Positions 51,601 to 57,600 of a stretch of 64,000 nucleotides of DNA are shown here, piece after piece. A program made the position numbers. Position 1 is the stretch's first letter; each line of letters starts with the position of its first letter. The stretch lies in NCBI RefSeq assembly GCF_056746865.1, contig NZ_CM163382.1; one strand, 5' to 3'.

Positions 51601-54600
51601 CGCAAAGGAGAACTCACCCGCCTGTCGCAACGCTGGCTCGCCAAGCGTCTGGAGGCGGTCCATGTTTAAGCCGACAGGAACACCACAACCTCAAAAACGC
51701 TACAAAGATGCCCACGGAGCACTCGTTACTGTCGAAAGCGTGTCTCACAACCGAGTGACGTTTTATCGCGACGGGTATCAATCGCCATGCGTACAACCGC
51801 TGGCGCGCTTCATGAAGGAGTTCGCGGAGGTTAACAAATGCTAACCGTCCAGAAGAAGATATTTTCACTGACTGCTATGTTGCAAAAATCCAGCAATATG
51901 ACAGCAAAGTCTGGCATTAATACAGCAGATACAAGCAAAGCTTATCATTTTATGGTGGTAGGAGCGGATGCCTTAACTATGTCAGAAATTACGGTCGATG
52001 GTGTTAGCGTTGAGAAGGTCAGCGGCTGCGCCAGAGAATTTCTGGTCGTAGATGGCTTTCTCTTCTCGCGTAGTGACTCCACAAAAACCTTCGTCCATGC
52101 GCGTGACGTTAACGAAATGAGCGCGATGTACTGTGCATCTGGTGCTTCCAATAGCGAGTTTTCGGAGTCCATAAAAAAGAGCTTGCCGTTATGCGGCAAC
52201 ACGGTTTATGGTTATAAGGCACCTCATAAAACGGGTGCCGGGATTGGCCTCCCGCTGGAGTTATCGGCGATACATGACGCGCCAGCGTCTTTTTTTGTAT
52301 CGGCGCACACGCACACCTTATCAATGGTGGGCTGTATGGGGCTACCTTCGGGTAGGCTGGTTTCCGATAACGCCAGTAAGGCCAACTCCGTACAGTCCAC
52401 CGCCAGCAAGATTGGTCTCTTCTGCGGTGGTTATAACAAGCCAACGTTATCGGAGGATGCCACATGCTGGCTACTACCCCTACCCAAAAACCGCAATTTA
52501 TCTGGATTATCGCCGCAGTTCGCCGCGATTGCCCGACAATTACCGCCAAAATTCATCATATTGCTGCCGAGTCTGAACGTGATGCTCGCCGTTCTCTGGT
52601 GCGCGATCACGTCTGCTTTTTTGCTGGTCGTATCCGCATGGAGGTGGCTCATGATTAAAACCTACGATGTGCATATGGATCCCCTCGAACGCACAAGCCA
52701 GATCATCACACTGACAGAAGTGATTAACGACATTCTGGTGAGCAACTCTCCCTCACGAGACGAAAGACTGAAGGCGTTACTCGCGATATTGGATCTCGCC
52801 GTTCGTGACGTTCATTTCCTGCTGGAAGGTGGCGAAATGCCAGTAAAAACGGGGGCAACCAATGAATAACTCAATTAATACCCCTCGCCTTACGTCCGCA
52901 CTTCAATTAATCGAGCAAGCAGCGGCTGTCCTGGTTGCTGTCAGTCTTTCGGCTGAAGAAATGGACGCTACTGATGTCGTGGATGCGATTAAAGCGTGCT
53001 CATCTTTGGTTAACGATGCCCGTGCAGAGCTGGTAATTCTTGGGGGTGAAAAATGAATATCAACTTAATTTATCGTCATCCGTGTGAGCTGGAAATTGAA
53101 TCATTGCTGAGCCGTGAAGAGCCATATCCAGACACATTCACTCTTGCAGATCGCACGACTGAACGGCTTACCAGAGCGCGCACAGGTCTGGTTCATGTGA
53201 TGAATGAGATTCTTCCATCGGTGGGAGGGGAACAGGCGACAGTAATCACTAGCTGGCTACAAAAAGTTACCTCTCTGATAGATATCAGTTTAATCGATGC
53301 GGAGAGTGCGAAATGACCAACATCCAGCTCATTGAAGCGCAATGTCGCATCGAACAGGTTCAGACTGTTTTAGGGTTCTGGCTTGAAGGGGCCAGCCCCA
53401 GCAACAGAGACAAGTTAATGATTGGCGCGGTTATGTCACTGCTCAATGGCGTACCAGAAGCTATTCAGGAAGCAGACGAATTGTTGGGCAAATATGAGTT
53501 ACAGAATCATTCAGGCGAGGCGAAACATGAATAATTTCTTAACGTTCCATGCAGAAGCAACGCCTGACGGCGTAAACATCATGCACCGCAGCAACGATGG
53601 CATGACAGAACGCGTTGAGGCCGTCTCATATATTGATGCCGTAAATCGTCTGGATGACGGGGATTATGACGATAAACCAGATGAAGGTATGTCAATACAT
53701 CTCGCTATTGCCGATGGCGGCAACCAGGGATATTTCGATTACACATCACAGCATAACGTCATTATGTGGAGATGGCTGATCGCAACAGTATTCATGCTGG
53801 AAATGAGAGAGGAAAACGGCACTGTCAGCATCATTGATGATACTGGCAATCCTTCCGAAGTGGCTGTTTATTCCAACGGCATCGTCGCCATGCCGCTGTA
53901 TCCAGTAGCAGAGCGCCTCGCTATGGCAAACAACATTGAGGGCGCGATGATAGAACGTTTTGGCATCGAGTCTGGCACAGAACGCGCCATCATTTTCTAC
54001 AGAGCCATGATGGATGTGGAACAAGGAGCACTGACTCCATTTGGTCGTGAAACGCTTGCTGAACTTCACAACAGCTTTATAGCTGAACTGAATGAAAACG
54101 GCATGCCAGCGGAACCAGTGACGCACTAAGGATGGAGCCATGATTACTAAAAATTTCCGACTGAATGCGCTGGCAAATAAGTATGCGTCGGCACTGTATA
54201 ACCACATTACCTCCACCAGCGGCGGGGACTATTTCATGATTGATGCGGACGGAGAGGCCGTCCGTGTGGAAATCGTCAATGGAGTAAAAGGCGTTCGCAG
54301 CCTGATCGATAGTTACGCACTGGCAGCCATGAAAGTGTTCTACCCGCAGTGGGAAACCGTGGGGATCGAGCTTCTTGATCGTTGCGTCACTAAGGACGGA
54401 TTGACTGACGCCGGGCGTGAGATATGGCAAAGCATGGTTAATGACATGGGCGCAACTGTAGCGGGAGGTTCTCATGCGTGAAAATGCAGAAATGGCGCTT
54501 AGCTCCGCAATCGGAGAGCAGGTGGCAAAGATTGCTGGTGCTGTGTGGATTCATAACCTTCATTCTACTGGTGAAGAGAAAATGGCAATTCAGACGCCAG

Positions 54601-57600
54601 AGGGACGCACCATTACTACATCTCTGAAGCCGTCAGATGTTTGTGATCTGATTTGCGCATTCATGTACCCAGCAATGAGGACTGTCCACGGCGATAAGTG
54701 GAAACTTGCGACAACCGCTGAATTTGATATGTGGCTAAACAATGATGGCATGCTGACTGATTACGGAATAACCAAGTGGCAGATGCTGGTTAGCCATATC
54801 GCAAACGCTATAGACCACGTGGGGTACGGTGATGCGAAACATTGATCTTATCCGTCAGGTTATCAGTGCGTCTGAAAACAACTGGCCTCATGTGCTGGGC
54901 TGCCTGAACATAAATGTCCCTGACTCTCCGCGCCGTCATGCTCCCTGCCCTGCATGTGGGGGCAAAGATCGATTCCGGTTCGACGACAACGGGCGCGGTA
55001 GCTTCATCTGTAATCAGTGCGGCGCTGGTGATGGGCTGGATTTAATTAAACGCGTAAATAACTGCGACACAACAGAGGCGGCGCTGCTTGCCGCTGATGT
55101 TCTTGGTATTGATTACCGGACAACAGAAACACCAGAAGCCACCAGCCAGAAACGGGAACAACTGGAAACCGAGCGCCAGCGACGCGAACAGGAGCGCCTG
55201 AAAAGGGCAGAGAAGGATGAACAACAAAGACGGGATACGTTTTCCCGTCAGTTTGATGACATGCGCAGAAAGGCTGTAAACGGCAAATCTGATTATCTGG
55301 TTGCGAAAGGGGTAGGCGATTTTACATTCCCCGTGTTGCCCGATGGATCTCTGTTGCTGGCGCTGGTGGATAAATCCGGCGCAGTCACAGCAGCACAGAC
55401 TATTACCTCACATGGTGAAAAAAGACTCCTGACAGGTTCGGCAAAGCGGGGGGCATATCACGCCATAAACGCACAGAAACGACCTCACAGCATCATAATT
55501 GCTGAGGGGGTGGCTACCGCCCTGTCGTGCCATTTAATTCGCCCTGACGCAATGACAGTGGCAGCAATCGACGCTGGCAACCTGTTGCCAGTAGCGGAAG
55601 TCATGCGCAGAACATATCCACAGGCACAAATCATCATTGCCGCAGATAACGATCACCAGCAAGGAAACTCCGAAAGTGGAGGGATCAACACGGGGAAAGA
55701 TGCCGCAGAGAGGGCCGCTATTTCCGTAGCTGGCTGGGTGTCTCTGCCACCGACTGACTATAAAGCCGACTGGAACGACTATCACCAACAACACGGGCTG
55801 GCGGCAGCCACAGCAGCATTTAAAGATTCGATGTACCAGCCACGGGGGAAAGGGGCGCAGGTGAAAAATCACAAACAGTCAGTCGGGGCGCTGAATGAGA
55901 TCAGTTCTGGCGAGGTGTTAAGCGATGATGAAATTGCTGTCCTCGAAGAAATCAACCGGACGTTTACGCATGTCACCATCGGCGGGAAACACAAGGTGGT
56001 GTCGCTAAAGCCTTCTCAAACCGGCGGTGTATCGCACGTTTTCGAGGATTTATCACAATTTCAGCATTATTTTCATCATAAACCGAGAGTCGCCAGAAAG
56101 CTGGCGGGATCGGCGTGGCTGTCATGGAGTGGGAAGAACTACAAGCCAGGAGGCGTAGGATTTTATCCAGTACCAGACAAATGCCCTGACGATGTTTTTA
56201 ATCTGTATGAGGGGCTGGCACTGGAACCAATTGAAGGAGATTGCACGGTATACCTTAATCACCTGTTGCAGGTTGTCTGTGCCGGGAATGAAGAGGCATA
56301 CCAATATCTTATCCAGTGGATGGCGCACATTATCCAAAAGCCTGATGAAAAACCGTCCGTGGCAATCGTAATGAAATCTGTCCCGGGCACAGGGAAAGGC
56401 ACAACGGTTAAACCGCTGCTGCAAATACTGGGGCAGTACGCCGCCCACATTAACGGGGCGGGACATATTTCAGGGCGCTTCAATTCAATACTTGCTAACA
56501 AGCTACTGGTATTTGCTGACGAAGTGACGATCCACAAGCCGTCTGAAGCTGACAGACTTAAAGCGATTATTAGCGAACCGACGTTTAACCTTGAGCGCAA
56601 GGGAATTGATGCTGAACCAATGCCGAATTTTGCCCGGTTGATATTTGCCAGTAACAGCACACAGGTATTACAGGCAGGGATAAGAGAGCGCCGCTATCTC
56701 GTGCTTGAGCCATCTCCTGAAAAAGCACAGAGCCGGGAGTATTTTGATCGGCTGTACAGTTGGCTTAATGATGGCGGTGCCGCAAAGTTGCTTTGGCATC
56801 TTAAAGGGGTGGATCTATCAGGTTTTGACCCTCAACGAGCGCCACAGACCGATGCCTTACGTGAAGAAATCTTGCTGGGGCTGTCTGGCGTTGAATTGTT
56901 TCTTTATGGCGAGCTAATCAATGAACCTCCGTTTAATGGCGAAGTCCGTTTGTTTGCAAAGGATATGGTTAGTCGATTTGTAGCGTGGTCGCTTGAGCGT
57001 GGGGAAAAGCTTAAAGAACCAGCAGCCAGATCACTACTGGGTAAGTCACTTGCACAAATGGGACTGGTGAAGCATGGAAGACCAGACCGTGGGAATGGCG
57101 TGTTCTACGAACTACCAGAGGTCGGAGTTCTACAGGCTGCGTTTGCCCGTCTGATCGGTATGGGGGGTTATGATGTTTTTTAATATAGTCTTTTTACAAG
57201 AAGAACGTTTTTACCTGTACCACCTATACCATTTTGCTAATTCAGTATTAAAAACAGTGCGTTACAGTGGTACAGGTCAATATCTTACCTATACCAGACC
57301 TGTACCACCTATACCATTAACAAACGCATTTCTTCTGGTTGGCTGAGAGGGAACAACCAATGATGAGCACACCATTTTACAAAGTGCGCCAGTTAGCTTC
57401 TTCCTCTGGCTGGCAGCTACGGTTTGAGGGGCGTTCAGACTGGCTACCCATTGCGGCATGGGCGAATGTTGAAATGTGTATTGACGGCGATACCGTTGAA
57501 ATCATTATTCCCTGCGTGGCAAGTCGGGACGGCTGTATAGAGCCAACAGATATGGCAGCAGAAATCAGAGAGGTAAAACATGAACAATAACTATTGCATA

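Follow-up and report, generated by a model that had tools for sequence, protein, structure and literature searches.

The question raised by this locus is what a compact run of small, overlapping open reading frames (ORFs) is doing immediately ahead of the primase gene of a phage satellite. The stretch of DNA that we analysed, referred to here as the window, comprises 64,000 nt of contig NZ_CM163382.1 (RefSeq assembly GCF_056746865.1) and carries an EcCIMP1-like, P4-related phage satellite of Escherichia coli, that is, a phage-inducible chromosomal island (PICI). A preliminary description of the window had pointed out six small coupled ORFs of 64 to 200 amino acids (aa) at 52862-54845, ending at the primase. 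We think it fairly probable that these six ORFs form the distal end of the early operon of an EcCIMP1-type satellite, with ORF1-3 and the ORF0 that precedes them acting as binders of other proteins, and ORF4-6 acting as Cnr-type regulators of the primase.

The coordinates of the six ORFs, their overlaps and the Shine-Dalgarno (SD)-like runs were confirmed. Together with their immediate neighbors, the genes read as follows.

52464-52658, plus strand: Icd/Kil-like protein, 64 aa, the gated first cistron (NCBIfam NF033153, E 4e-20)
52651-52869, plus strand: ORF0, 72 aa, acidic; either a product nested in the long Eta-like frame described below or its C-terminal end
52862-53056, plus strand: ORF1, 64 aa, isoelectric point (pI) 4.2; variable cassette gene with no family match
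53053-53316, plus strand: ORF2, 87 aa, pI 4.9; variable cassette gene
53313-53534, plus strand: ORF3, 73 aa, pI 4.7; variable cassette gene, present in prophages too
53527-54129, plus strand: ORF4, 200 aa, net charge -22; N-terminal alpha/beta domain and Cnr-like (DUF5375-like) C-terminal domain, residues 74-186
54140-54481, plus strand: ORF5, 113 aa; probable distant Cnr-like domain protein
54474-54845, plus strand: ORF6, 123 aa; rarer paralog of ORF5
54832-57183, plus strand: primase-helicase with zinc ribbon, Toprim and DUF5906 (Pfam Zn_Ribbon_Prim, Toprim_3 and DUF5906), the last cistron of the operon

ORF1 and ORF2, like ORF2 and ORF3, overlap by 4 nt of the ATGA type, while 8-nt overlaps join ORF3 to ORF4 (ATGAATAA) and ORF5 to ORF6. 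Between ORF4 and ORF5 there is a 10-nt gap with GGATGGAG inside it, and ORF6 overlaps the primase by 14 nt when the primase is taken to start at ATG 54832 (GTG 54829 is an alternative start). For ORF4 we used ATG 53527, which gives the 200-aa protein; ORF calling alone extends this gene to an upstream TTG. A purine-rich, SD-like run precedes every start in the chain, and a consensus scan of the plus strand found no promoter-like or terminator-like sites inside 52410-54845. The six ORFs of the preliminary description are therefore real, but its placing of the start of the chain at 52862 was wrong: two further coupled cistrons, the Icd-like gene (52464-52658) and ORF0 (52651-52869), lie ahead of ORF1 with 8-nt overlaps, and the genes upstream of these are coupled in turn back to alpA. 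The chain thus consists of eight cistrons before the primase and is set in a coupled operon of 15 cistrons, which runs from alpA (50189) to the end of the primase-helicase gene (57183).

Pairwise comparison of diverged orthologs gave a ratio of nonsynonymous to synonymous substitution rates (dN/dS) of 0.1-0.5 for each ORF, figures that are rough given that dS is often saturated, and all six ORFs are, by this measure, under purifying selection. Hundreds of E. coli genomes carry RefSeq annotations for all six, near-identical elements among them; homologs of ORF4 and ORF5 are spread across Enterobacterales; and the AlphaFold2 (AF2) models of ORF4 and of ORF5 each have a mean predicted local distance difference test (pLDDT) score of 93. 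The dN/dS values, the conservation across genera and the confident structure models led us to reject the possibility of spurious ORFs. The proteins are acidic throughout ORF0-6, with pI values of 4.2-5.6. Some copies carry spurious product names, such as 'nicotinic acetylcholine receptor subunit beta' and 'ubiquinol-cytochrome C reductase', and ORF4 homologs in Klebsiella phages are called '2-polyprenylphenol hydrolase'; these odd names are propagated annotation errors.

The preliminary description had considered none of the sequences recognisable, a statement that no longer holds, given the relationship of ORF4 to Cnr (DUF5375), the paralogy of ORF5 and ORF6, and matches in the PHROGs database for ORF3, ORF4 and ORF5, all to phage families of unknown function. 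The Cnr protein of P4, which reportedly stimulates the binding of alpha, corresponds to Pfam DUF5375/PF17345 and to phrog_5991. ORF4 matches phrog_1515 at E 6e-47 and, weakly (E 0.02), phrog_5991, the latter within the region that aligns to Cnr. When the Cnr profile was compared with the ORF4 family, hhalign returned 94.7% (E 6e-8), with Cnr residues 7-101 aligned to ORF4 residues 74-186, and precomputed PF17345 matches exist on some ORF4 homologs. Four invariant residues are shared, R82, E138, L169 and G173 of ORF4 (near-invariant in its family) being equivalent to R15, E49, L84 and G88 of Cnr. Profile comparison thus indicates that the C-terminal domain of ORF4 is homologous to P4 Cnr. Besides the four invariant residues, the two share an L-[ST]-x-x-G motif and a location directly upstream of the primase; ORF4 departs from Cnr in an additional N-terminal domain, a beta-hairpin insertion of 22 residues and a strongly acidic composition where Cnr is neutral. 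A 2073-aa match to ORF4 (P0359) proved to be an adhesin with RTX/Ig repeats and was dropped as compositional.

ORF5 matches phrog_37628 (E 6e-50). The hidden Markov model (HMM) of the ORF5 family matches ORF6 at E 6e-6, and the two families align over their full length with five invariant columns, which shows that ORF5 and ORF6 are paralogs; only 21 clusters of ORF6 homologs were found. The C-terminal domain of ORF4 and the ORF5/6 families gave moderate hhalign values of 51-65% (E 6e-5 to 1.6e-4), the AF2 models of ORF4 and ORF5 have helices and hairpins in the same order, and the L-[ST]-x-x-G motif is common to Cnr, ORF4, ORF5 and ORF6. ORF5 and ORF6 are probably more distant, Cnr-type members of the same group. 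Searches of the PDB and BFVD with the ORF4 and ORF5 models found no convincing structural relatives. One 336-aa protein (P0294) contains an ORF4-like part (residues 18-214) followed by an ORF5-like part (ORF5/6 HMM, E 2e-26), and is either a natural fusion of the neighboring genes or an artefact of gene calling or a frameshift; a real fusion would support a functional link between ORF4 and ORF5.

Related loci were gathered through ORF5 (79 loci) and through the N-terminal domain of the primase (80 loci). In the primase-anchored set, the gene immediately ahead of the primase belongs to the ORF4/5/6 family in 71 of the 80 loci (ORF5 in 38, ORF4 in 20 and ORF6 in 13), and 2 more retain truncated remnants. 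Whatever gene precedes it, the primase ATG falls just after or within the end of that gene, with its SD sequence inside it, an arrangement that is always conserved. Over the same 80 loci, the interval from icd to ORF4 has 44 architectures, assembled from at least 15 families of small genes that include ORF0-3. These comparisons of gene content show two tiers of conservation, with a shuffled upstream set of genes and an ORF4/5/6-type gene that is kept at the primase. Among P4-like satellites, 90% carry cnr, which normally occupies the place between epsilon and alpha (PMC8628076).

Because of the homology to Cnr and the near-constant position directly upstream of the primase, we consider it most likely that ORF4-6 bind the initiator, the primase-helicase, and adjust how it acts on the downstream iterons, thereby controlling copy number or the timing of replication. 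The N-terminal 335 aa of the primase are 33% identical to P4 alpha (E 2e-40). Its C-terminal half is of the DUF5906 type and not the P4 type, scoring 20 bits against TIGR01613, for which the cutoff is 109. Two clusters of iterons follow the gene.

57213-57316: iteron cluster 1, ACCTRTACCA in five copies, direct and inverted, directly after the primase
58323-58426: iteron cluster 2, the same iteron in both orientations

The clusters lie about 1.1 kb apart, on either side of two small ORFs. They are a candidate origin reminiscent of the bipartite ori/crr of P4. The probable presence of Cnr-type regulators beside the primase offers a concrete hypothesis for the control of satellite replication or of an episomal state.

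The upstream tier behaves differently from ORF4-6. ORF0 overlaps its neighbors by 8 nt on both sides, is annotated separately in strain G749 and has a dN/dS of 0.30, and its presence varies among loci. ORF2 is homologous to the N-terminal part of a longer family, U2 (hhalign 99.7%), and ORF3 matches phrog_20558 (E 3e-9) and has relatives in the early-left operons of prophages. Searches of ORF0-6 against Pfam, NCBIfam and PADLOC returned nothing significant, and BLAST and hhalign comparisons of ORF0-3 with P4 epsilon, orf151 and Cnr and with the 75-aa protein of P4-like satellites found no similarity. A proposal that ORF0-3 are paralogous helical hairpins was unsupported, save for a weak match of ORF1 to U7 (35%) and the relationship of ORF2 to U2. 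A literature search with RefSeq protein accessions found nothing. The six ORFs are thus not uniformly conserved replication accessory proteins of known role, since ORF1-3 are variable and have no assigned role. Judged by their relatives, ORF0-3 are drawn from a rapidly shuffled pool that is common to the satellites and to the early-left operons of temperate phages. Most likely they are stoichiometric binders of host or helper proteins that act at the onset of the satellite lytic cycle. Stx and other temperate phages draw on this pool too, and it is a reasonable hunting ground for new host- or helper-directed inhibitors.

Ahead of the chain lies a pair of immunity-type RNAs, embedded in a long reading frame.

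51838-52869, plus strand: long Eta/'Ash family' frame, 343 aa, crossing both immunity RNAs, in frame with ORF0, which it includes, and closing 8 nt into ORF1
52219-52295, plus strand: isrK-type RNA element, a P4 seqA-like target site (Rfam RF01394, 64.3 bits against a gathering threshold of 50)
52320-52407, plus strand: C4/CI-type antisense immunity RNA (Rfam RF01695, 77.1 bits against a gathering threshold of 45, E 7e-14)
52445-52456, plus strand: C4-RNA target, overlapping the SD sequence of icd, the first gated cistron (CGTTATCGGAGG)

In Rfam, relatives of the P4 seqA site are picked up by the isrK model and those of the P4 CI immunity RNA by the C4 model (PMC10111431). The isrK element includes an intrinsic terminator (a T run after a hairpin at 52276-52289) and two sites complementary to the C4 RNA. 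The specificity loop of the C4 RNA, at 52363-52376, is complementary to 52255-52267 and to 52445-52454; the latter segment, CGTTATCGGA, is a perfect 10-nt complement of the loop and leads into GGAGG, part of the ribosome-binding site of icd. The loop differs from one related locus to another, and both target sites change in step with it, with at least 10 specificities distinguishable by eye. Among 47 distinct sequences, loop/target pairing was found in 88.5% of cells, compared with 58% in shuffles and 29-53% in slid controls; compensatory changes were present in 8 of 10 loop-target pairs; and the covariation score was 0.713 versus 0.148 after shuffling, with none of 500 shuffles scoring as high. 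At the level of sequence, the C4 RNA is thereby shown to pair with the ribosome-binding site of icd, and since loop and target co-vary across the 47 distinct relatives, the chain would be gated at that site. A gate operated by an antisense RNA with many interchangeable specificities predicts immunity groups among satellites. A segment of about 38 nt with a TGTATAAT-type -10 box, present in most relatives between the isrK terminator and C4 (~52300-52320), is missing from the window and from L001, L005 and a few other loci. The C4 RNA of the window copy probably arises solely through processing of read-through transcripts that start at a promoter upstream of isrK, like that of P4.

The Icd-like protein scores 71.7 bits against the NF033153 cutoff of 25 and is predicted from its family to be a division inhibitor; it is 43% identical to P4 Kil (E 6e-9), and its dN/dS is 0.18. 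The Pfam Phage_ASH match falls on residues 124-220 of the long frame, that is, on the RNA region itself. A stop-free frame of 137-364 codons crosses both RNAs in all 55 distinct related loci, terminating at the icd stop in 18 and at the stop of the next ORF in 37. In those 18 relatives (e.g., L005, 3339-4211) the long frame is in frame with icd, as are eta and kil in P4, whereas in the window it is in frame with ORF0. Therefore, 52464-52658 is open here in two frames, both of which are apparently used.

Four further coupled cistrons lie upstream of the long frame.

50189-50392, plus strand: alpA, AlpA-family helix-turn-helix (HTH) regulator, the first cistron of the operon (HTH annotation in near-identical elements)
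50392-50823, plus strand: hypothetical protein of 143 aa, coupled upstream cistron
50836-51669, plus strand: AntA/AntB antirepressor-family protein (Pfam AntA, E 1e-21), coupled upstream cistron
51662-51844, plus strand: DUF4222 protein, coupled upstream cistron

RefSeq annotation of the related loci L001 and L002 places 8- and 7-nt overlaps between the upstream cistrons. The AlpA of the window is 34% identical to P4 orf88 (E 4e-8). The DUF4222 protein has a weak profile similarity to the N-terminus of P4 orf151 (hhalign 43%, E 2.5e-4), which, if true, would put an orf151-like piece upstream of the immunity RNAs here and not downstream of them.

In P4, translation of kil prevents termination at timm, and the Eta frame is translated from an upstream, activator-dependent promoter, giving transcription that is insensitive to immunity (PMC10111431). 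Modelled on such systems, the operon of the window would work as follows. In the quiescent state, the C4-type RNA pairs with the SD region of icd, as the covariation shows, and icd without ribosomes would lead to premature termination of transcription, by analogy with P1 immI and P4 timm. In P1 immI, c4 RNA from the upstream part of the same transcript reportedly base-pairs around the icd ribosome-binding site, and expression of the genes that follow is said to require translation of icd. Once a helper phage activates AlpA, the long Eta-like frame would be translated and would carry ribosomes across the RNA region, as proposed by analogy with P4 eta. The overlapping stop/start junctions would then hand ribosomes from cistron to cistron, and primase would be made solely upon translation of the full chain. 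The overlapping junctions would have a plausible job in this scheme because the decision taken at the front of the operon would be carried by them to the primase.

The left operon of P4 has the order orf88(AlpA)/vis - eta/CI RNA/kil - epsilon - orf151 - cnr - alpha, and its gene-order logic and 8-nt overlaps are shared with the window. Both elements have an AlpA homolog, a Kil/Icd homolog and an alpha-like primase N-terminus, a CI/C4-type RNA and seqA/isrK-type site embedded in a long Eta/Ash-like frame, a Cnr-like protein before the primase, and two iteron clusters in the window that resemble ori/crr. The P4-type analogy drawn in the preliminary description was therefore apt with respect to layout (the homologs of Kil, AlpA and alpha, and the 8-nt overlaps), but its account of the equivalent position in P4-type satellites as one for helper-manipulation genes was incomplete. 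The equivalent position in P4 holds both epsilon, for helper derepression, and cnr, a replication regulator, and only the cnr side has a detectable counterpart in the window. Unlike P4, the chain of the window contains no detected homolog of epsilon or orf151: for epsilon (PF25738), ORF0-6 gave no Pfam match at E<=0.1, while P4 epsilon itself matches at 9e-51. The window also differs from P4 in having three Cnr-like paralogs, one of them with an extra N-terminal domain, instead of a single Cnr; in adding four small acidic genes from the shuffled pool; in the DUF5906 C-terminal half of its primase; and in the end point of its Eta-like frame, which is in ORF0 where that of P4 is in kil. Annotation of the G749 element, which is 98% identical, includes no sid, delta or psu, and not every ORF of the window was scanned for them. 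Where P4 has Sid, Delta and Psu, the late region of the window has DUF2824, P22 gp7-like and P22 injectosome translocase-like ORFs. Current understanding is not overturned by these comparisons; rather, they widen the P4 paradigm to take in a satellite of P22-like helpers.

By gene organisation, the element belongs to the same family as EcCIMP1, which has int, alpA, an antirepressor, an Ash family protein, a DNA primase, DUF2824, DNA-transfer proteins and PerC within ~20 kb (PMC11773190). Unlike EcCIMP1, the window copy is located at yicC, has a different integrase and contains an insertion sequence (IS). In the paper that describes EcCIMP1, the icd-to-primase genes are hypothetical proteins, and the immunity RNAs and the relationship to Cnr are absent (Pick et al., ISME J 2025, PMC11773190). 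The element also shares with the immI loci of P1 and P7 (c4 - icd - ant1/2) the same Rfam C4 family and an Icd-like protein, and the loop/target specificity differs among relatives of the window as it does between P1 and P7. Unlike P1 and P7, in which the cargo is an antirepressor, the window has a cargo of seven small genes and the primase-helicase, with its antA-type gene upstream of the RNA.

Several observations weigh against the reading that we favor. ORF4 is below every Pfam threshold for DUF5375, and the Cnr profile has no direct match to the ORF5/6 profile, so that their link is transitive via ORF4. The 80 synteny loci are related and partly redundant, and 7 of them lack a family member before the primase (4 have an unrelated 70-aa gene there, and 3 have a near-empty alpA-to-primase interval). 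Which family member is present does not track with the C-terminal type of the primase (DUF5906, DUF927 or P4-type), and a common E. coli variant (L004) has ORF0-4 and a 99.9% identical primase without ORF5 and ORF6. This variant, together with the prophage contexts, weakens the idea that ORF5 and ORF6 are obligatory partners of the primase. Genes like ORF3, ORF4 and ORF5 are carried by genuine temperate phages and by prophages, in the repressor-to-integrase operon and with no adjacent primase; the carriers include phi467, phiP27 (gene L06), Stx1a and Stx2a phages, Klebsiella phages, and Yersinia and other prophages, some of which have DnaB/DnaC-type replication modules. Since homologs of ORF4 and ORF5 are found in these phages far from any primase, a primase-specific role is unproven, and the occurrence of the Cnr-like domain beyond P4-type replicons argues that it is not primase-specific. 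At the front of the operon, the window lacks the 38-nt segment with a TATAAT box that most relatives have ahead of C4, which leaves the promoter layout uncertain. Polarity along the chain, Rho dependence and readthrough by Eta are borrowed by analogy from P1 and P4, and the roles proposed for all of the chain proteins are predictions from sequence and gene position.

Much of this would fit the suggestion that the whole chain, including ORF4-6, is a cassette for counter-defence or host takeover, in which the Cnr-like domain would be a generic scaffold for protein binding and its adjacency to the primase would be inherited synteny. The temperate-phage early operons that carry ORF3, ORF4 and ORF5 homologs with no adjacent primase (the chief point in favor of this view), the elements with the same primase that lack ORF5 and ORF6, and the missing correlation with primase C-terminal type would all be accommodated, as would the acidity of all the proteins (a net charge of -22 for ORF4) and the highly mosaic gene content. 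We nevertheless judge it to be rather unlikely, because neither a match to known defence or anti-defence families (PADLOC, Pfam and NCBIfam) nor a structural match to DNA mimics or to any solved fold was found, because P4 Cnr, the one homolog whose role is known, regulates replication (PMC8628076), and because a family member still abuts the primase in 71 of 80 loci while everything further upstream shuffles. The same Cnr-like character of ORF4 speaks against viewing the six genes as helper-manipulation genes, either epsilon-like derepressors or redirectors of assembly and packaging in a P22-like helper. Their position is that of P4 epsilon, the upstream tier is as variable as helper-specific factors would be expected to be, and most EcCIMP1-like elements are found in the absence of a Kapi1-like prophage, pointing to several helpers (PMC11773190). 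Yet the genes have no similarity to epsilon (PF25738), to orf151 or to the 75-aa protein of P4-like satellites, the same families are present in temperate phages, which need no helper manipulation, and neither the titre of Kapi1 nor its CI expression is changed by EcCIMP1 (PMC11773190); we regard this explanation as improbable. EcCIMP1 does add immunity against Kapi1 and has no known defence system (PMC11773190), and with no PADLOC match among ORF0-6, one or more of the ORFs could in principle be the source of this superinfection immunity, as a new defence or exclusion function. We give that very little credence: prophage-state immunity needs constitutive expression, whereas the operon appears to be built to be silent in quiescence by its C4 gate, and the C4 RNA or other genes of the element are equally good candidates.

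A more speculative extension, for which we see only a slim chance, is that the icd-to-primase interval is a two-tier conflict locus, with a first tier of shuffled acidic inhibitors that satellites and temperate phages exchange, and a second tier, an expanded Cnr-like family, that both sides aim at the replication initiators of the other. If so, the up to three paralogs of the satellites would regulate or protect their own primase, the ORF4- and ORF5-like copies of Stx and phi467-like phages would restrain satellite replication or control Toprim primases of their own, and Cnr-like proteins would be a general currency of phage-satellite replication conflict, beyond the maintenance of P4 as a plasmid. 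An entry recorded as 'Elizabethkingia phage EKP1' (OM284015.1), to which a Bacteroidota host is attributed, has ORF4- and ORF5-like genes that are 64-68% identical to the enterobacterial ones (DNA or protein); it looks like an enterobacterial phage, and the host assignment may be wrong.

The element lies in the E. coli chromosome between yicC and yicG. Its gene order is integrase, DUF6387, AlpA-type regulator, 143-aa protein, AntA/AntB, DUF4222, 'Ash family' ORF, small-ORF chain and primase-helicase, followed by DUF2824, P22-type ejection-protein genes and a PerC regulator. The annotation of L001 and L002 has int - alpA - primase in a unidirectional arrangement of ~10-20 kb with no capsid or lysis genes, which is the organisation of Gram-negative PICIs (PMC11773190; for the four-zone scheme, PMC10111431). 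EcCIMP1 itself is a 20-kb PICI of E. coli MP1, which is excised, activated in an AlpA-dependent manner and transduced by the P22-like temperate phage Kapi1; AlpA is its master activator, and helper-dependent excision, replication and transfer have been demonstrated experimentally only in this case, with Kapi1 (PMC11773190). L001, which is 98.8% identical over the chain region, sits at tRNA-Thr by proA, the EcCIMP1 site. Among 5426 complete E. coli genomes, 684 match parts of the 2.5-kb region and 253 contain nearly all of it. The family is thus common, and one of its members is a proven working satellite, yet the icd-to-primase genes are annotated as hypothetical or are misnamed.

Directly after the integrase gene, at 47686-47752, is an int-alpA RNA (Rfam RF02996, 60.6 bits against a gathering threshold of 35.8). 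An IS3-family (IS2-like) insertion at 47858-49131 separates the integrase/int-alpA RNA region from the DUF6387 gene and creates a fused ORF start at 49106; near-identical elements lack it. Owing to this insertion, the window copy may be impaired in regulation or excision.

Downstream of the iterons, three late genes were located.

59098-59559: DUF2824
59553-60230: P22 gp7-like
60230-61549: P22 injectosome translocase-like

The P22-type ejection (internal virion) module of which they are part spans 59098-64000 of the window and continues beyond it; in the G749 element, the gene for a 906-aa lytic-transglycosylase protein comes next after the ejection genes. Having its own ejection-protein genes, instead of genes for capsid size or packaging, fits a P22-like helper, yet is unusual for a satellite.

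A complete related satellite of 12152 bp has been deposited as a circular, non-mobilizable E. coli 'plasmid' (NZ_CP148430.1; L167). It contains PerC, integrase, antA, DUF4222, icd, ORF1-4 and a Toprim+DUF927 primase, without ORF5, ORF6 or the ejection module. The record suggests an episomal state or an excised, replicating one.

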